NCBI GenBank assembly: GCA_963832165.1
Contig: CAWHTE010000002.1
Location: 352,001 to 416,000 of the forward strand
Origin: an uncultured delta proteobacterium
GTDB taxonomy: Bacteria; Myxococcota_A; UBA9160; SMWR01
DNA: 64,000 nt
Direction: 5' to 3'
Every line of letters starts with the position of its first letter. Positions within the stretch are counted from its first letter, which is position 1. Shown piece by piece: positions 12,274 through 19,923 of this stretch. The translations under genes and the position numbers were made by a program. The notes beneath the pieces are model-generated. The model searched no databases and was not told where the DNA came from. It worked only from the letters and a program-made list of their open reading frames with translations.

Positions 12274-13190
12274 CCCGCTCGGCGCCCGCCGCGCGTCCCA
12301 CCGTCGTCGGGCTGGGCCTGTGCGTGGTCGATCACCTCTACGTGGTCGACGAGATCGCGAGCACGCGCGAGCGCTCGCGCTACACGCAGCGCAAGGTGCT
12401 CGCGGGTGGAATGGTGTCGAACGCGCTCGCTCAGGTCGCGCGCCTCGGTTGCCGCGCCGAGCTGATCTCGCTGGTCGGCAACGACGCAGACGGGCGCCTG
12501 GCCCGGCGCAGTCTGCGCGCGATGGGAGTGTCGACGCGCGGACTCCTGCTCTCGGACGCATTCCCGACCACGATCGCGGTGGTGATGATCGGTGCGCGCG
12601 ACGGCGAGCGCCGTTTCGTCACCGCGCATCGCGCGCGCTTCGAGCGGCGCGTGCCCGCGTTCGATCTCACGCCGGTTCGTCCTGGGCGCGTGTTGCTGAT
12701 CGACGGCCATTTCCCCGCGCAGGCGCTGCGCGCCGCGAAGCGCGCGCGCTCGCTCGGCGTTCCGATCGTCGCGGACTTCAGCGATCCGCGCCCCGACTAT
12801 CTCCGCCTGCTTCCCTGGGTGGATCACCCCGTGCTCCCCGAGGCATTCGTGCGGCAGTGGTCGCCGGGCGATCCCGCCGACGCGCTGCGCAGGCTGCGGC
12901 GCGAGTTCGGCGGCTCGCCCGTCGTGACGCTCGGCGCGCGCGGCGGTCTCTACTGGTGCAACGGGAAGGTGAGGCAGTACCGCAGCCCGCGTGTGCGCGT
13001 GCTCGACACGACCGGCGCAGGTGACGTGTTCCACGGCGCGTTCGCAGCGGGCCTCGCCTCCGGACTCGAGCTTCCCGAGATCGTCGCGCGCGCCGCGCGC
13101 GCGGGCGCGCTCGCGTGCACGGCGCTCGGCGCGACCGCGCGCCTGGCCTCGCGGCGCGAGTGGAAAGGCTTGGTTCCCGCGGGTCGTTGA
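12270..13190 (+). CDS. PfkB-family carbohydrate kinase
   Basis: GG.vsNA, VGND.DG, VTLGARG and DTTGAGDVFHGA motifs. Confidence 0.9.
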   Translation: MTRSAPAARPTVVGLGLCVVDHLYVVDEIASTRERSRYTQRKVLAGGMVSNALAQVARLGCRAELISLVGNDADGRLARRSLRAMGVSTRGLLLSDAFPTTIAVVMIGARDGERRFVTAHRARFERRVPAFDLTPVRPGRVLLIDGHFPAQALRAAKRARSLGVPIVADFSDPRPDYLRLLPWVDHPVLPEAFVRQWSPGDPADALRRLRREFGGSPVVTLGARGGLYWCNGKVRQYRSPRVRVLDTTGAGDVFHGAFAAGLASGLELPEIVARAARAGALACTALGATARLASRREWKGLVPAGR

Positions 13191-13451
13191 CCTCGCACAC
13201 TCTCGCAGGCTGCGCCCCGAGTACTGCCGAAGGCGGATCGTGCCGCCTGATCGATCCTGGCGCGCCCCCGCAGGTTCAGCTCGAGCTGATCGCATCGGTG
13301 GACGCGCGCCTGCAGGGCACCGTGCGGATCAAGCCAGACCTCGCTGGAAGTCCGCGATTTCATTGGACCTGGTTTCGGCGTCGAACTCGACACGATTCGC
13401 GGTCCTCGACCGAGCCCGAAACCCCGCGGGCGCACATTTAGTCAGGTAGCC

Positions 13452-13473
13452 GAACTGGATTCAAATCCAGTTC
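13452..13473. repeat. Perfect 10-bp inverted repeat GAACTGGATT-ca-AATCCAGTTC
   Basis: Direct inspection; lies at the distal boundary of the cassette array. Confidence 0.7.
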
Positions 13474-13564
13474 ACGGAAACGATCAGTGCGTTGGTGACT
13501 CCGGCCAGCGCATGTCACCCAGGACGAGCGCCGAGATCGTGACTCCTGTCGGACGACCCGAGCA

Positions 13565-13843
13565 TCACTTGCTGAAGTGTTTGACCAGAAAGAATCGGGC
13601 CAACTGCTCGCCTTCCTCGGTCAACACCACGGACTTCGACTTCGAAACAGGATCTGAGATCCAGCCTCTTTCGAATAGGAGATTCATGAGGTCCCAATCG
13701 AGCGCCTTCCAGACGCGCCCGCCGTGCAGGGTCAGGCCGAGCATGGCGAGCGCGACCTCCGCGAGCTTGTCCGAATCCAGCTCGTCGGGGAGGCGCGCAG
13801 GACGTTCATCATCGTGAGTCATCGTGGTGCTTGCATGTCGCAT
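13565..13843 (-). CDS. DUF6429-family small protein, last gene of the array
   Basis: LALAMLGLTLH...WKALDWDLMNLLFERGWISDPVSKSKSVVLTEEG; start may be 13822. Confidence 0.75.
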   Translation of the reverse strand: MRHASTTMTHDDERPARLPDELDSDKLAEVALAMLGLTLHGGRVWKALDWDLMNLLFERGWISDPVSKSKSVVLTEEGEQLARFFLVKHFSK

Positions 13844-13897
13844 GACGCTGTCACTCAGCCGCCGGCGGAGCCGGTCGGCTCCAGTGGCTGGTTAGAC
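13840..13897 (-). other. attC site 1 (58 bp, 59-be-like), R' degenerate (GTCATGC)
   Basis: Minus strand: GTCTAAC CAGCC ACTGGAGC CGACCGGCTCCGCCGGCG GCTGAGT GACAGC GTCATGC. Confidence 0.8.
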
Positions 13898-14199
13898 GGT
13901 CGTCGGGTTAGGCGCGACAGCAGATACCCCAATAGACGGTGCAATACGAAGACCGGACCCAGCGGAGCGCCGAGGAGCAGCGCCCAAAACAAATAGCCAG
14001 CTCGCGCTCCGGTATCCCAGATCTCACCGAACGGCGGCGCTAGACAGGCACGACGCGCATTGTCATACCCCACGCCAGCGTCCAGGCATGTATCCATGGC
14101 GTTGAGAATGTAGAACCACTGGCATATCCACACGTACAGCGCGAACATAATCAGGCCGAGTGTCACTTGAATGCCCCGGTGCATCTTCGTCATCCGCAT
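13855..14199 (-). CDS. Cassette-encoded hypothetical membrane protein (2 TM, CLDAG...C motif)
   Basis: ATG lies within the upstream core site GTT|ATGC; ORF reads into attC1. Confidence 0.7.
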   Translation of the reverse strand: MRMTKMHRGIQVTLGLIMFALYVWICQWFYILNAMDTCLDAGVGYDNARRACLAPPFGEIWDTGARAGYLFWALLLGAPLGPVFVLHRLLGYLLSRLTRRPSNQPLEPTGSAGG

Positions 14200-14353
14200 A
14201 ACGGATCGCGGTTGAGCTGCGGCCGCCCCGCGTGTCTCCCAGTATCAATCCGGCGGCTGCTGCGCGTCAACCACCGAACCGGCGGCCGCCGGCCGTGCGA
14301 CCCGGTACAGCAACCAAAGCGGGTCGGCCGTCAGCTGCAATCGATTGTTAGGC
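14196..14353 (-). other. attC site 2 (158 bp)
   Basis: R'' GCCTAAC-AATCG-L'' ATTGCAGC ... L' GCTCAAC-CGCGATCC-R' GTTATGC. Confidence 0.9.
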
Positions 14354-14382
14354 AGCGACTCGTTGCCGGCCGAAGCCGAACG

Positions 14383-14601
14383 TTACTGCTTGGCCGGCAA
14401 GCGACTGGAAATGGTCCAGGTAACAGCCGTGCCAAGGAAGCATGCTACGAAATAGAACCCCCACCTTGCAATTGGGCTCTCCGGGACTCCTCGCCCAAAG
14501 CGGATGATCTCGCCCGGAAGCACGAGATCAACGCAGCCGATGACAACCATCGCCGGGAAAAGGAAGCAAAGAGCTGCGAGATAGGTTCGTGCCGAGATCA
14601 T
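14383..14601 (-). CDS. Cassette-encoded small membrane protein (72 aa, 2 TM)
   Basis: Best ORF between attC3 and attC2, hydrophobic, in array orientation. Confidence 0.6.
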   Translation of the reverse strand: MISARTYLAALCFLFPAMVVIGCVDLVLPGEIIRFGRGVPESPIARWGFYFVACFLGTAVTWTISSRLPAKQ

Positions 14602-14636
14602 GGATTCTCGTTCGGGTGCCTCCGCTCTGCGTGGTC

Positions 14637-14794
14637 GCCTAACGGATCGGCGCTCAGCTGCGAGCGCGCTGACCGCATCGTAACACCACCGAAGCCGCCG
14701 CCAGGCTGCAAGAGCCGCTGGCGAGCGAAGCGAGCCTTAGCGGCGGTCCTTCGACATGCTGCTGGCGCTCGGCAGCTGCAGCGCCTTGTTAGCC
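14637..14794 (-). other. attC site 3 (158 bp)
   Basis: R'' GGCTAAC-AAGGC-L'' GCTGCAGC ... L' GCTGAGC-GCCGATCC-R' GTTAGGC. Confidence 0.92.
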
Positions 14795-15249
14795 GGCATG
14801 CCTGCATAGGCGCGCGCGACGAAGCCCGAGAACATCGCCATCACCGTTCCCATGAGAACGAGAAACACCGGGTTTGCAAAATTGGGAAATGGTGGTCCGA
14901 TGACAAACGCGACTAAAGCGGACAGGCTGGATGTTGCGTATGCCGCGCAGCTTAAAGCTAAGAGAGCAACGATTGTCTTAGTAGGTTGCGACGGGACGCC
15001 AACTCGAGATACGCGGAGCCGCGACGCAGCAGCAAACAGGTGGAGGGTAAGCAAGCCCGACCCAGCGAAGGATGCAGCAAGCGAACCCGTGCACCACAGG
15101 TTAACGCGTGGGTCTACGTTGCGTACCGCGAACGCGATGTGGGAGATGAGCAGTCCTGTTAGCAAGAGGACCATCACCCTGCCGCCCTTCGCCGAGCGGC
15201 CCCATCTTTCTAGTCTCGCCAGCCGTGAGTCGGACTCAATCCAAGTCAT
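14737..15249 (-). CDS. Cassette-encoded hypothetical membrane protein (about 4 TM)
   Basis: Hydrophobic ORF from ATG 15249 reading into attC3; cassette ends are 13-bp complementary (GTTAGCCGGCATG). Confidence 0.65.
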   Translation of the reverse strand: MTWIESDSRLARLERWGRSAKGGRVMVLLLTGLLISHIAFAVRNVDPRVNLWCTGSLAASFAGSGLLTLHLFAAASRLRVSRVGVPSQPTKTIVALLALSCAAYATSSLSALVAFVIGPPFPNFANPVFLVLMGTVMAMFSGFVARAYAGMPANKALQLPSASSMSKDRR

Positions 15250-15274
15250 CGCCAATCGCCTTTGTACCCATGCC

Positions 15275-15430
15275 GGCTAACGGATCGCGGTTCAGCTGCG
15301 GCCGCCCCGCGTGCCTACGAGTTTCAATCGGCGGCCGCCGCGCGTCAATCACCGGACCGGCGGCCGCCGGCCATGCGACTCAGCGCGGCAACCAAAGCGG
15401 GCGGCCGGCAGCTGCAACCGTTTGTTAGGC
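15275..15430 (-). other. attC site 4 (156 bp), close homologue of attC2
   Basis: R'' GCCTAAC-AAACG-GTTGCAGC ... GCTGAAC-CGCGATCC-GTTAGCC; aligns along its length with 14196-14353. Confidence 0.92.
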
Positions 15431-15868
15431 CGCGCCTCTGATGAGGCCGACGATTTGAAGAATGGCAATGAACAGAGCCGCGAAGCCAAAACCAATGGAC
15501 ATGGTCGCCTGGGTCGTGGCCATGCTGCCACTCGCGACTTTCTGCCGCCAGAGGACCCTGCAGCCAGGGGGCGGGAACTCGCCGAACCGAAGTGCCATTA
15601 CGCCAGTTCTGAGGAAGGCCATGCCACAAACAATGAGAACGCAGATCCCGGGCGACATAAGGAGAACTAGGCGTCGATGCAGGGACGCCGCGTATTGCTC
15701 AGACACTGCGCGGGCCTCGGGAACGGAGAGGCCACTAAGGAAGGGAGGATCTGGGAAAAAGGCCTCAGCGTAGTATCGGACCGAGATGAGCCAAGCCACG
15801 AACACCAACGCGGTGCCGATGACGACCGCTTGGTAAACCGGCTGGGGTTCAGAGTGCCTTGTGCTCAT
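15425..15868 (-). CDS. Cassette-encoded hypothetical membrane protein (3 TM, GEFPPPG motif)
   Basis: Stop TAA lies inside R'' (GCCTAAC); cassette ends share GTTAGGCCGC. Confidence 0.75.
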   Translation of the reverse strand: MSTRHSEPQPVYQAVVIGTALVFVAWLISVRYYAEAFFPDPPFLSGLSVPEARAVSEQYAASLHRRLVLLMSPGICVLIVCGMAFLRTGVMALRFGEFPPPGCRVLWRQKVASGSMATTQATMSIGFGFAALFIAILQIVGLIRGAA

Positions 15869-15996
15869 TCTGTGTGCGGCCTAACGGATCGGCGCTCAGC
15901 TGTCGGCTCGCGGCAACCTTCCGCAACCCCACCGAGCTGCCTTGCCAGACTCTACCAGATTCCGCTAAGGCGCAGGCCGGTCATCTGCAGCGCCTT

Positions 15997-16245
15997 CCAT
16001 GAGAAGGCCAGCCTCGTCAAGTGGCGAATAACATTATTTCGTCTCTTATCACGACGCGCAGGCTCCCGAGTCGAACCACCACCAGGCTTCCATCCGCACT
16101 CTCGATGACCTCGGTCTCGCGAGGTCGGTGCACACTGAGGTCCTTGGGCGTCGGGTGCTGCAATCTTGTTATCGACCTCTCCTTGCGAAGGGCCCGGCGT
16201 TATAACGCAGTCACCCGGACACGGCGGTCTCGATCCATCACGGCT
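15997..16245 (-). ncRNA. Putative bridge/seek RNA of the IS1111-type element
   Basis: Stem GGGTGaCTGC/GCAGCACCC encloses an internal loop containing TAACAAG (target left + core); downstream ATGGAAG equals the element circle junction; exact RNA ends unknown. Confidence 0.75.
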
Positions 16246-17304
16246 CTACGCAGCCTGCACGGAAGCGACTCGCACGGGCTCGTAGACCTCTCCCGTCGTC
16301 CACAGACGGTGCAAGAGGACGGCGAGCCGTCTCGCCACCGCGACGATCGCGCGCTTGCGGGCGATGCTCCCTCCGCGCTCCCCCATGCGAAGGCCCGCAC
16401 GTCGCAGATCCGTGTCGGGACCAAAGGGCCCGAGGATGTAGTGCGCAGCACTCACCAACAGACGCCGCAACAGTCGATCCCCTGCCTTCGTGATCCGTAG
16501 CTGGGGATTCTGTTCCCCCGAATCTCGTCGCTTCGGACGAAGCCCGACGTACGCTCCTACTGCGCGGCTCGTCGCAAATCGGCGCGGGTCCTCGATCGTG
16601 AGCACGTAGTACAGCGCCGTGATCGGCCCCACGCCCGGCACCTGGCGCAGCAGCTCCGTCTCCGGGTAGCGCTCTCGGCACAGCTGCTCCACCTCCCGGT
16701 CCATTTGCCGTATCGTCGCGGTGAGCTGCTCGATCGTGTCGAGGAGCGTCTCCAGCCCGGGGAACAGATCCATCGGCGTCGTCGCGCGCACCCGCTTTGG
16801 AAATGCCTCCGTCGAGCTCGCCGGAACACGCGTCCCCAGCGCCTTCGCGAAACCCCGCACCTGATTCACGAGCTGAGTCCGAGCCCGTACGAGCCCATCC
16901 CGCGTCTGGATCAGGATCCGGTCTCGCTGCGCCTGCGCCCCGCGGTGCACGATCGGCTTCAACAGCGACGGATCCATCCGCCCCAGGCGCGCCAACAGCT
17001 CCGCATCGACGCCGTCGCTTTTCGAGTCGTTCTCCGCGATCAGCCGCACTCGGCGCGGATTCGCGACGATCGCCTCGTGCCCGTGGCGAACGACACAGCG
17101 ACTAACCCATGGCGAGTGCGTCCCTACCTCGAGAACAACCCGACTTGGTGGGAACGAAGCCAACCGCTCCGTCATCGCCGGTTCCGTCGTGCGCACCCGA
17201 AATGCCTCGATCACTGCGCCCGCCGCGTCGAGCACCCGTCCCTCGGTCCACCGGTCGCCTAGGTCCAGACCGATCGTCAACCCGCTCGTGATACGATCAC
17301 CCAC
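16246..17304 (-). CDS. IS110-family DEDD transposase/bridge recombinase
   Basis: IGLDLG, VVLEVG, KSDGVDA (DEDD), VPGVG, RDSG catalytic Ser and RITKAGD; likely GTG start at 17304 after AGGAGG (ORF open to 17346). Confidence 0.95.
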   Translation of the reverse strand: MGDRITSGLTIGLDLGDRWTEGRVLDAAGAVIEAFRVRTTEPAMTERLASFPPSRVVLEVGTHSPWVSRCVVRHGHEAIVANPRRVRLIAENDSKSDGVDAELLARLGRMDPSLLKPIVHRGAQAQRDRILIQTRDGLVRARTQLVNQVRGFAKALGTRVPASSTEAFPKRVRATTPMDLFPGLETLLDTIEQLTATIRQMDREVEQLCRERYPETELLRQVPGVGPITALYYVLTIEDPRRFATSRAVGAYVGLRPKRRDSGEQNPQLRITKAGDRLLRRLLVSAAHYILGPFGPDTDLRRAGLRMGERGGSIARKRAIVAVARRLAVLLHRLWTTGEVYEPVRVASVQAA

Positions 17305-17403
17305 GCCAGCCTCCTGTTTGGGACCCACTCCGTGGTGAGCCCGCAATCGTTGCAGACCTTCACGGTACTGCGTTCAGGAGGCTGGCCTTCTCATCCCATC
17401 TTG

Positions 17404-17898
17404 TTAGGCCGCCGGCTCGCCGACAAGAAGTTTGCATTCCTCAATGATTGCGGTGTCGATCTCCGCGATCGAGTCTAGATCGTCGTCCTCGACGTCGTCG
17501 TAGTTGTAGAAGAGGCCCACCAAGCGAGCAATGCCGAAGGACTCGCCCAGGTACTCGCCGGGCGGTAGTAGCTCGTCGATCTCGCGAAACACCCGCTCGA
17601 CGATGAAACGTGCGCCCTGCCTAGGTGGGATCTCGCCACCGGCTACTTGAGAGGCATAGTGCCGCTTGAGGACCTCGCCTGCGTGGATTGGAGTGGGAAG
17701 AGGATGACCAAGCTCTCGGAGCGCAGACTCGAACAGGCTTCGGAGAAGGTGCGGATCGGAGCGGGATGTCTCGCCAGCGAGAACAGCGAGCGATTTCGAA
17801 TCAAGACCGCCCTCTAGCCATGCCGCAGCTACGCCTGGCAGCTTTTCAGGCGGCAAAAACCCGAGGACGTGGGCGGCGGTGGATTCGTTCAGGTGCAT
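17404..17898 (-). CDS. Cassette-encoded hypothetical acidic alpha-helical protein
   Basis: 164 aa; stop inside R''; cassette ends share GTTAGGCCGCC. Confidence 0.8.
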   Translation of the reverse strand: MHLNESTAAHVLGFLPPEKLPGVAAAWLEGGLDSKSLAVLAGETSRSDPHLLRSLFESALRELGHPLPTPIHAGEVLKRHYASQVAGGEIPPRQGARFIVERVFREIDELLPPGEYLGESFGIARLVGLFYNYDDVEDDDLDSIAEIDTAIIEECKLLVGEPAA

Positions 17899-17907
17899 TT
17901 TCAGGCG

Positions 17908-18021
17908 GCCTAACGGATGGCCGCTAAGCTGCGGCCGCGCGAAATGCTACCACGACCCGCAAGCGCACAGCTGGCCGAGCTGTTGAAGCCCGCGGCCGTC
18001 AGCTTCAGCGGCTTGTTAGAC
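17908..18021 (-). other. attC site 6 (114 bp)
   Basis: R'' GTCTAAC-AAGCC-L'' GCTGAAGC ... L' GCTTAGC-GGCCATCC-R' GTTAGGC. Confidence 0.92.
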
Positions 18022-18387
18022 GGCCACTCGCGCTGGTCGCCAGAACTCCACGAAGAACGACGTTCGGCCTGACAGTGCAACGTGGTGCTCTACCTCAGGC
18101 AGCACGATGCCCGGAGACGCCGGGGTGAGCCGCTGACATCGATTGAAAGGTGCATGCACATAATAGTCGATAGGGCCGTGAGTAATCTGGATGCGAGCCC
18201 AGATGCCTCGCTTCGTGGTGTGAAGCTTGAGGAGAGCTTCAGGAACTGAACTCTCATCGAAGTCTGGCGTTCGGTGGTAGGGCTCGTAGCCGAGTGGAAT
18301 CTCGCTGCGATCACATTGGACACAGTCGAGATCTGTTCCGATCCGCGATTGGCGGCCCTCGGTAGTGAGTACCCATCGTCGGTCGGA
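18016..18387 (-). pseudogene. 5'-truncated duplicate of the DUF3565/DUF1971 cassette gene
   Basis: 18009-18387 is near-identical to 18886-19264 (offset 877, about five substitutions seen). Confidence 0.9.
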
Positions 18388-18887
18388 TCAGAAGCGCGGC
18401 GACCCTACCTGCGTGCTGATCACGGCGCGGTCCGTCACGCAAAGAAGGCCAAGACAAACGAACGCGATGTCTGCGGAAACCTGGGCGCTCGAGCGAAAAA
18501 ATGAACGAGCGCGCGGTCACAACAAGGCGGCGGTCGCCCTGGCGAACAAACTCGCGCGGATCGTATGGGGGGTGTGGAAACACGACCGCGCCTACTGCAG
18601 TCCGTCTCAGAGCTAGAAACCCCATCGGCTGATTCGAGCGAACGACGATGATGGCGCACCGGTTCGGACCGGCGCAGGACCAGGCCGACAACAAGCATGG
18701 CCTCAGAGGCCGCTGTCCAGCGATTGGCCCCCTGCGCGCGACTTTCCATCATGGCCCGGAGCCGAGTGCTCCACACACGAGGCCGGAGATACGACTGCAG
18801 TCGAACCCAGCGCCAAAATCGTTCGAAAGGAGCTCCGAAGTAAAAGATCAGCGCGAAGAATCAGATTGACGGAGGAGTCCAGATACG
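18383..18887 (+). mobile_element. 5'-truncated remnant of a second IS1111-type (attC-targeting) element: frameshifted transposase C-terminus, 3' non-coding region and right end
   Basis: GRI.KRGDP...RGHNKAAVALANKLARIVWGVW* (stop at 18616); right end TTGACggaggagtccagata|CG abuts the attC stub gcttGTTAGAC. Confidence 0.85.
18617..18885 (+). ncRNA. Putative bridge/seek RNA of the second element
   Basis: Stem GCGCAGG/CCTGCGC (18672-18737) encloses AACAAGC and CAGCG, matching the two strands of the attC target; AGATACG (18787-18793) matches the element right end + core. Confidence 0.7.
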
Positions 18888-18898
18888 GCTTGTTAGAC
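18886..18898 (-). other. attC site 7 stub (R'' GTCTAAC + spacer only)
   Basis: Identical to the R'' end of attC6; the remainder is replaced by the IS remnant. Confidence 0.8.
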
Positions 18899-19366
18899 GG
18901 CCACTCGCGCTGGTCGCCAGAACTCCACGAAGAACGACGCTCGGCCTGACAGTGCAACGTGGTGCTCTACCTCAGGCAGCACGATGCCCGGAGACGCCGG
19001 GGTGAGCCGCTGACATCGATTGAAAGGTGCATGCACATAATAGTCGATAGAGCCGTGAGTAATCTGGATGCGAGCCCAGATGCCTCGCTTCGTGGTGTGA
19101 AGCTTAAGGAGAGCTTCAGGAACTGAACTCTCATCGAAGTCTGGCGTTCGGTGGTAGGGCTCGTAGCCGAGTGGAATCTCGCTGCGATCACATTGGACAC
19201 AGTCGAGATCTGTTCCGATCCGCGATTGGCGGCCCTCGGTAGTGAGTACCCATTGTCGTTCGGAGAAGGGCGGGCCGTGCCGCGTGTGTCGGCGGTGTCC
19301 GCACGCAAGCTCGGCAACCCATTCGGAATCGATGTCTTCGGCAAACGCGACGATCGGTCGATTCAT
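18893..19366 (-). CDS. First cassette: DUF3565 domain fused to a DUF1971 (TehB/YeaR-like cupin) domain
   Basis: EWVAELACGHRRHTRH.PP...LDC..C followed by YHRTPDFDESSVPEALL..HTTKRGIW...PEVEHHV...FFVEFW; cassette ends share GTTAGACGGCCA. Confidence 0.85.
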   Translation of the reverse strand: MNRPIVAFAEDIDSEWVAELACGHRRHTRHGPPFSERQWVLTTEGRQSRIGTDLDCVQCDRSEIPLGYEPYHRTPDFDESSVPEALLKLHTTKRGIWARIQITHGSIDYYVHAPFNRCQRLTPASPGIVLPEVEHHVALSGRASFFVEFWRPARVAV

Positions 19367-19383
19367 TGATTGTGGGAATGGCC

Positions 19384-19545
19384 GTCTAACTTGAATTCGA
19401 CAGGTCTGCGTAACACCCGGCACACAGCAGAGAAGCTGGCGTAACACGGGCGCAGGAGAGATATACCACGCGTGAAGCCGCCGTATCGCCAGCGTTTGCA
19501 AGCGGCAGCGGCGGTAGGTTCCGGCGTTGGGCAGGTCTGCGTAAC
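19384..19545 (-). other. attI-like site: core GTTAGAC preceded by three GTTACGC direct repeats
   Basis: No matching R''/L'' arm upstream; 14-bp repeat at 19401-19414 and 19532-19545; third GTTACGC at 19439-19445. Confidence 0.65.
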
Positions 19546-19636
19546 GCCGCCCGGGCAGGGGCGATCGCGTGTACTGCGCTCGGCGTGTCGCGCCCTCGTC
19601 GCGCCGGGAGTGGGAGGGGCGAACGAAGCCGCGGAA

Positions 19637-19657
19637 CGCGGGTTTCACCCGCCCTAC
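19637..19657 (-). repeat. GTAG-type REP-like hairpin GTAGGGCGGGTGAAACCCGCG
   Basis: GTAG + GC-rich hairpin overlapping the BolA stop codon; related to 31740-31854. Confidence 0.55.
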
Positions 19658-19923
19658 GCGGTCTCGGTGATCAACCGGTCGATCGCGTGAACGGGCGCAT
19701 CGTCGCCCTTCATGAGATGCGCGATCGCGGCATACACGCGCTGCTGCTGCACGACCCGGCCCTGCTGCGCGAACGTCGCCGATACGACGCGAATCTCGAA
19801 GTGTCCGCCGCCGTTCGCGCGCACCTCGACGCGCGCGTCGGGAAACGCCGCCGCGATCGCCCGCTCGAGATCGCGCGCCGTGTCGCCGGACGAGCTCGGT
19901 GAGGAGAGGATCTGGATCGGCAC
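19654..19923 (-). CDS. BolA/IbaG family protein
   Basis: GGGHFEIRVVSATF...QQRVYAAI...VHAI. Confidence 0.9.
   Translation of the reverse strand: MPIQILSSPSSSGDTARDLERAIAAAFPDARVEVRANGGGHFEIRVVSATFAQQGRVVQQQRVYAAIAHLMKGDDAPVHAIDRLITETA

Follow-up and report, generated by a model that had tools for sequence, protein, structure and literature searches.

A cassette array with an attI region at its head and no integrase gene beside it, between pfkB and bolA of an uncultured delta proteobacterium

In a 64-kb stretch of DNA from an uncultured delta proteobacterium (hereafter the window; assembly GCA_963832165.1, contig CAWHTE010000002.1, positions 352,001 to 416,000) we analysed an integron cassette array situated on the minus strand, with a pfkB kinase gene to its left and bolA to its right. 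The array is headed by an attI region and has no integrase gene (intI) next to it. We read it as derived from a reverse-type integron, i.e. one whose intI is transcribed towards attI, as once probably served by a distant integrase and as likely decaying now, and put the probability of this reading at about one half. With two or more attC sites and no intI nearby, the array is by definition an attC cluster without an integrase (CALIN), and we regard its retained attI as a modest variant feature of an otherwise known kind. It is not a complete integron, in which intI adjoins attI, a pfkB remnant and bolA lying upstream of its leader instead, nor does it belong to the class of single attC sites lacking an integrase (SALIN) or attG insertions, its cassettes being headed by an attI region. 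The window is part of a 493-kb contig in an assembly of 5.5 Mb on 11 contigs, 89% complete and called G000 below; G-numbers stand for genomes and L-numbers for examined loci of metagenomes or genomes.

The attI leader and the cassettes behind it

Read outwards from its crossover point G|TT at 19390, the leader (19384..19551, minus strand) comprises an L-box-like heptamer (19395-19401), direct repeats GTTACGC at -24 (19408-19414) and -55 (19439-19445), a conserved TGGTATA block (19462-19468), which is a candidate -10 element, and a palindrome (19526-19545). Among 41 genomes, long DNA matches to the 165-bp leader were found in G000 itself (73%, on the same contig at a distance of 98 kb), in G017 (two) and in G002, besides three short, weak ones. 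The match in G017:C441 (71%, E 3e-9) is found some 100 bp downstream of an intI that points towards it and scores 449 bits with TIGR02249 (cut-off for IntI, 265 bits). Palindrome patterns retrieved three genome loci, two of them the G017 matches again, and 31 metagenome loci; eight of the 32 loci examined proved related to the leader and 24 unrelated, and a longer leader pattern retrieved no locus from the metagenome and viral contigs. In L089/L106 (probably one locus), L091 and L094, the last with weaker homology, a co-oriented intI ends 93-112 bp upstream; no intI was detected by tblastn upstream of the related leaders of L086, L087, L100 and L114. G043:C5 provides a further intI-adjacent region homologous to the leader. 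Overall, the leader homologues of relatives lie about 95-115 bp downstream of a co-oriented, reverse-type intI. Nine aligned leaders, three of them linked to intI, share the 5' palindrome, TGGTA(C/T)A (invariant in all nine), two direct repeats and, 4-5 nt ahead of GTT, an L-box-like heptamer, and the divergent integron of G035 has the same L heptamer before its crossover as the window leader. Because its homologues in complete integrons are the sequences downstream of intI, the leader is, to judge from its sequence, a genuine attI region, which would include a cassette promoter (Pc). Five other metagenome loci (L095, L102, L110, L115 and L116) have the leader palindrome with further similar repeats and no full leader or intI match.

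To find attC sites, we gathered candidates from the relatives' loci and aligned 20 from intI-bearing loci, none of them from G000, into a covariance model, R1, which was run over the 64 kb with filters off; its E-values are rough. The top six of its 19 matches (E 4e-14 to 7e-4; next best match in the 64 kb, 0.23) are six attC sites, four of which are intact, one is split by an insertion sequence (IS) of the IS110 family and one is short and degenerate. There is in addition a stub consisting of R'' and spacer, and the two attC stubs score weakly (E 1.6 and 2.3). Two home-made scans preceded R1: one was too strict (four matches, no real site), and the other, with four real sites among 53 matches and 250 matches in a shuffled genome, was used for candidate collection only. 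A search of 13000-19800 against Rfam gave no matches. The segment 16026-16174, considered as an attC for its TAAC/GTTA pairing, was rejected, as it lies inside an IS and has no R1 match.

Start and end of the cassette are perfectly complementary over 12, 11, 10 and 13 nt in cassettes 1, 2, 3 and 4, respectively, and in each case the best match of the start is the cassette's own end; in cassettes 5 and 6 the complementarity extends over 7 and 4 nt only. Integration of circular cassettes at G|TT is an established mechanism (PMC4889954), and because their ends are complementary, cassettes 1-4 appear to have been put in by an IntI-type crossover at G|TT.

Behind the leader comes cassette 1 (18893..19389), with domain matches of its open reading frame (ORF) to DUF3565 and DUF1971 (TehB-like). 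It ends in the attC stub (18886..18898; R1 E 2.3), which is cut by a single-copy IS110-family remnant (18377..18885, plus strand, i.e. opposite to the cassettes) made up of a C-terminal recombinase piece (NF033542 positions 286-342, E 3e-9) and the right end. Next come the partial duplicate of cassette 1 (18016..18376), the intact attC 1 that closes it (17908..18021; E 4e-14, with a fold z of -3.6 that none of 200 shuffles reached) and cassette 2 (17404..17898; 164 amino acids). The main part of attC 2 (15879..15997; E 7e-12) is separated from its R'' end (about 17398-17409; E 1.6) by an IS110-family element (15998..17397) co-oriented with the cassettes, present once in the assembly, with subterminal inverted repeats (15999-16020 and 17373-17394) and a recombinase ORF (16246-17346) that exceeds the NF033542 cut-off and matches PF01548 and PF02371. 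There follow cassette 3 (15425..15868; 147 amino acids), attC 3 (15275..15430; E 5e-10), cassette 4 (14737..15255; 172 amino acids), attC 4 (14637..14794; E 1e-10), cassette 5 (14383..14601; 72 amino acids) and attC 5 (14196..14353; E 2e-5, supported by its fold), the three attC sites being intact. Cassette 6 (13855..14199; 114 amino acids) is closed by the short attC 6 (13840..13897), which has a degenerate R' (GTC for GTT), an R1 E-value of 7e-4 and a hairpin z of -2.1, 6 of 200 shuffles being as good. The ORFs of cassettes 2-5 match no family and that of cassette 6 nothing in Pfam or NCBIfam. Last on the minus strand stands a DUF6429 ORF (13565..13843; PF20008, E 4e-22) without an attC of its own, there being no R1 match behind it.

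The first-pass annotation of this region, made from the letters of the window and without database searches, had described much of this correctly. Its six attC sites were all recovered by a model built without sites from G000, which ranks them first, so that the failure of an attC model, which the annotation had named as refuting, did not occur; the one stub lies at 18886-18898. The short, co-oriented, lower-GC ORFs are as described (all on the minus strand, cassette GC 0.585-0.61 versus 0.68-0.73 in the flanking genes), as is the interval of about 260 bp between the first core site and bolA (264 bp from the crossover G at 19390 to the bolA stop). The attI-like leader finds its homologues in the intI-adjacent regions of G017:C441, L089/L106, L091 and G043:C5, and the search that the annotation proposed for other copies found them in G000, G017, G002 and metagenome loci. 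Cassette ends complementary over 10-13 bp hold for cassettes 1-4, and not for cassettes 5 and 6.

The insertion site, the missing integrase and other docks

Relatives display an empty site where the window has the array with a copy of the pfkB 3' end on either side, which shows the array to be an insertion. In all five same-genus genomes searched pfkB and bolA are convergent neighbours with no intI between them; the ends of the matches are separated by about 4-16 nt in three of these genomes, by about 195 nt in another and by about 720 nt in the fifth. The idea that relatives might carry an intI here, later deleted from the window, thus finds no counterpart in these five. On the left the intact pfkB-family kinase gene (12291..13190, a query range with approximate start; plus strand, PF00294, E 6e-35) contains the first copy (13091-13163), and on the right a diverged remnant (19545..19613, plus strand; 78% over 73 nt) is fused to the leader at G|TT. 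The remnant has the same residue in 12 of 14 codons, with six of the eight differences at third positions, followed by a frameshift. Beyond it lies bolA (19654..19923, minus strand; PF01722). We found no comparable flanking duplication at four of the six other G000 arrays and short matches only at the other two; the neighbours of typA vary among four relatives and are uninformative. In L052 (G002:C55) the insertion of about 720 nt between pfkB and bolA has, by eye, the look of a VapBC-type toxin-antitoxin pair, and the gap of 195 nt is that of G003; the interval between pfkB and bolA looks like a hot spot for insertions. A palindrome resembling repetitive extragenic palindromes (19638-19657) directly follows the bolA stop; the same motif occurs after the gene end upstream of the orphan leader of L086 and upstream of the T block (see below) at the C11 array (G000:C11:95620-95639).

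No integrase gene was detected in the assembly. TIGR02249 gave five matches in G000, each well short of the cut-off and the best with 72.6 bits, and the two best genes are XerD-like and XerC-like; PF00589 gave eight matches in G000, none of them on the window contig, in line with the earlier statement that the 64 kb contain no tyrosine recombinase. The whole-genome search for intI that had been recommended therefore ends without a hit in an assembly that is 89% complete. Among the matches listed by tblastn and blastn with 15 relatives' intI genes there is no intI remnant in G000; a six-frame profile of relatives' IntI gave no fragment, and a DNA profile of the intI 3' end and spacer gave no remnant in G000, including at the window leader. 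IntI over the cut-off is encoded in 22 of 40 relatives, including three of six of the genus. Because seven of eight multi-dock relatives have intI, and given the completeness of the assembly, we estimate a chance of roughly one in three that intI is present in the genome and was not assembled. Public sequencing runs contained at most 22% of the words and the contigs of four runs do not span the array locus, so that they are uninformative on assembly accuracy or a missing intI.

G000 contains seven cassette clusters, and R1 has 16 matches in it at E up to 1. Its orphan leaders, seven in all, fall into two types, type A at two arrays and type B five times at four arrays; one array has no leader. 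The type B leader has its homologues in the sequence that follows intI in G005 and G018. Sequence-only leader models A and B, run over 44 genomes of the family, place type A in seven and type B in 11 of them, the matches of G002, G005, G017 and G018 arising by construction, as their sequences are inside the models. There are 41 leader matches in relatives, 37 of them with loci: an essentially full-length intI lies upstream of nine (one frameshifted), a C-terminal piece upstream of three, and none upstream of 25, of which 20 have 1,500 nt of upstream sequence and five less than 600. G017:C396 and L100 start with the last 60-70 nt of intI, and such orphans with intI 3' remnants reveal one route of origin. 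Seven of the eight relatives with at least two leaders carry intI; the exception, G023 (96% complete), has three leaders and intI remnants only. One reverse intI together with several orphan docks is common in the family. Not every genome of the group has several docks: G001 and G035, whose intI is divergent, each have a single copy of their attI region. In this family intI often lies upstream of attI and is directed at it; from such a layout intI could be lost without damage to the promoter region, attI or the cassettes, which would account for the frequency of orphans headed by attI.

Behind pfkB stands a dispersed repeat (13172..13473, plus strand) comprising a block of about 260 bp, T, and a 22-bp palindrome, P (13452-13473). 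T precedes intI-less leaders at three other G000 arrays and at two metagenome loci. Its copies lie at G000:C7:813975-814242, C11:95681-95941, C1:630321-630629, C4:697322-697582 and C11:224626-224878, with further ones at C11:776905-777109 and C4:531918-532060 and in L087 and L114; they are bounded by CCCGCGGG motifs, have conserved hairpins with little covariation and are usually followed by the 22-bp palindrome. T precedes orphan leaders of both types, and in the window it appears to supply the pfkB stop codon. Paired copies of the palindrome flank a gene of about 360 codons with a C-terminal HNH-like motif, recognised by eye (L065:200-1574 and L074:1403-2788; also G000:C7:798970-800029, C11:398369-399468 and C3:51922-53860), whose product has no NCBIfam match at 1e-5; the palindrome may be the end or the target of an undescribed mobile element. 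Partial attI leaders also occur inside arrays, in L185 (G023:C27):47-120 and G000:C4:693112-693266. Because the G023 piece begins directly after an attC, at the G|TT of a direct repeat, it suggests that attI pieces can travel like cassettes.

Origin and activity of the array

In the history that we favour, a reverse-type intI would have been lost, leaving attI region, probable promoter and cassettes as a portable module, and this module would then have been inserted at the pfkB 3' end, as the empty site in relatives and the two pfkB 3' copies indicate. Cassettes 1-4 probably entered by IntI-type crossover at G|TT, to judge from their complementary ends, and the duplication of cassette 1 and possibly an inversion of 13492-19544 may have followed, perhaps after loss of the adjacent intI. 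Two IS110 elements broke two attC sites, and a deletion shortened both the duplicate and one IS; these outcomes are visible in the array, and the order given here is the probable one.

The duplicate of cassette 1 is near-identical to the original, as first noted (99.2%; 3 substitutions in 368 nt), but it is partial, comprising the 3' two thirds only. It fits copy-paste by IntI followed by IS insertion and deletion, and equally well an unequal crossover between IS-bearing and IS-free alleles; duplication into the first position by IntI copy-paste has been documented (PMC8024014). The first-pass annotation had taken it to suggest recent activity and hence an IntI acting in trans. Service in trans is plausible in the past and unsupported for the present: the assembly contains no intI, no cassette ORF is shared between the G000 arrays and an origin without IntI also fits the duplicate.

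The proposed inversion concerns the two edges of the array. In L087 and L114 an intI-less leader follows T and P, with its first GTT at a fixed distance. In the window T and P lie at the far end of the array, a GTT triplet (13491..13493, plus strand; the candidate left joint) stands at that same distance behind P, and the fusion of leader and pfkB remnant falls exactly at G|TT on the opposite strand. GTT occurs at the leader position behind P in three of 36 P copies (L087, L114 and the window); its chance is about 0.012 for GTT alone and about 0.003 with the similarity of the spacer, for a hypothesis formed post hoc. Inversions by IntI between inverted GTT sites are documented (PMC10127599) and would leave this signature; we consider an IntI inversion of 13492-19544 between the opposite-strand G|TT joints no more than suggestive, with about even odds. 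Such an inversion would have occurred without room for intI upstream.

Several observations weigh against an array that was once served from afar. The G000 arrays have no cassette ORF in common; what they share is confined to attC-like stretches, leaders, the T repeat and a pair of IS elements (99.5% and 99.8%). Likewise the docks within G046 and those within G018, both genomes with intI, have IS copies and attC sites in common but no cassette. The junction of the duplicate lies in an imperfect 15-nt match to the IS, as fits an unequal crossover free of IntI. The inversion was conceived after the data had been seen, and pfkB homology across its joint is not significant (p 0.06-0.6; 497 and 669 of 2000 controls as good). 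A scan of the leader with the sigma-70 consensus returned no promoter, and intI could be missing from an assembly that is 89% complete. Two candidates for cassettes shared between docks were dismissed. The sequence at three G017 docks gives a translation with a cysteine-rich motif and looks like a transposase, presumably of the IS91 type; the shared 1.3-kb segments of the G046 master and orphan arrays begin inside attC, have the size of an IS and were read as IS copies. At these three attI sites, in L184 (G017:C19), at the end of L037 and at the start of L040, the crossover is followed by one and the same element, which encodes the start of a presumably IS91-like transposase and is possibly an IS that targets attI.

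The missing tenth of the assembly invites the view that an unassembled intI still loads cassettes into the window and the other orphan attI sites. The seven intI-bearing relatives among eight with at least two leader matches speak for it, as do the intact simple site and direct repeats of the window leader (whose 4-nt spacer recurs in the intI-linked L089 and L094) and the 99.2% identity of the duplicate; yet 5.5 Mb on 11 contigs hold no trace of intI, G023 demonstrates that an integrase-free state exists in the family, cassettes are not shared between arrays and two of the seven attC sites are broken by IS, so that we hold continued loading to be possible but unlikely. In a bolder form, tentative to a similar degree, the integron would be a distributed one, in which a single reverse-type integrase serves scattered promoter-attI docks and can cut or flip them at the upstream G|TT palindrome; the window dock would have been loaded and inverted from afar, by an integrase perhaps encoded in the unassembled part. 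At the other extreme, all IntI work may have been done in a donor with an adjacent intI, the finished array having arrived in one piece and stayed frozen since, with the duplicate due to unequal crossover, strain mosaic or assembly artefact and the G|TT joints to chance. Simple truncation does occur, as the intI 3' remnants of several relatives' orphans testify, the duplicate junction has microhomology, and integrase loss, rearrangement and IS activity are among the CALIN origins given by Cury et al. (PMC4889954). The window leader, however, has no intI remnant, its 5' edge meets the adjoining sequence precisely at G|TT and another G|TT lies at the expected distance behind P, and we judge a frozen import, these ancillary assumptions included, to be distinctly unlikely.

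That the IS110 bridge recombinases, directed to attC, reshuffle the array in place of IntI, as had been speculated, is highly improbable. Two different IS110-family elements do sit in attC sites of the array, RNA-guided attC targeting by IS1111/IS110 elements is documented (PMC11187229), and IS copies have moved recently between other G000 arrays. However, cassettes 1-4 each match their own end best from G|TT on, which is the IntI crossover point, both elements went in 3-6 nt within the attC spacer and only split the sites, and we noticed no attC with a joint at the IS insertion point, no formal test having been made. The cassette ends fit a G|TT crossover and the IS elements only broke attC sites. 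Near-identical IS copies (99.5-99.8%) are present in attC sites of different arrays (G000:C7:814957-816537 and C5:195355-196936; C1:234286-235533 and C11:96667-97915); these copies show recent attC-directed transposition in G000, and L174-L176 probably do so for G046.

Comparison with known systems

CALINs are more numerous than complete integrons, and the usual view of them is that of broken remains or of passive stores of cassettes. Where an integrase is available, an array with attI and promoter region could still take up new cassettes and express them. If one integrase with many docks were functional, a chromosome would have several independent points of capture and expression, and counts of integron capacity would change, since current tools miss these attI sites. 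The locus offers a concrete substrate for tests: the 165-bp leader is defined, and a relative supplies a cognate IntI. We found no literature on several attI-led integrase-less arrays per chromosome, in a search that is weak in that subscription journals and supplements were little covered.

With respect to CALINs, half are reported from genomes without intI (PMC4889954), and their mobilisation in trans has already been proposed (PMC4889954, PMC9668308, 10.1101/2025.06.18.660453). Their definition in PMC4889954 ignores attI, and IntegronFinder matches attI of classes 1-3 only; the window array differs in keeping attI and its upstream region, of which there are several copies per genome. The attG insertions of Loot et al. 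(10.1101/2022.09.11.507474) resemble it in that cassettes lie away from the integrase gene, but they have no attI in front, whereas the window array is headed by a full attI region; recombination between attI and genome sites is described there as not significant in rate. ISKpn4 and ISPst6 (PMC11187229) sit at one attC end, as do both IS elements of the window, the intact one of which also carries subterminal inverted repeats and, downstream, a non-coding region; the window elements are passengers of the array and bear no sign of cassette movement.

The leader itself resembles in plan attI1 of class 1 integrons, which has a simple site with two upstream direct repeats (PMC2117344, PMC3146285) and binding sites at -50, -30, -7 and 0 (PMC2117344), and whose direct repeat 1 (DR1) heptamer, GTTACGC, is identical to the repeat of the window leader (PMC3146285). 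In the window, on the other hand, the repeats lie at -24 and -55 instead of about -30 and -50, there is an extra palindrome at -155 and no intI is adjacent. In layout, the leader-bearing integrons of the relatives are like the reverse integrons of Treponema (Wu et al. 2013, PMC3607928), where intI is transcribed towards attI; in the window no intI lies upstream, and in relatives with a homologous leader it does. T. phagedenis retains attC sites after loss of intI (PMC3607928). That paper assumes one attI per integron, whereas in the present case a genome has several attI regions, each at the head of an array of its own.

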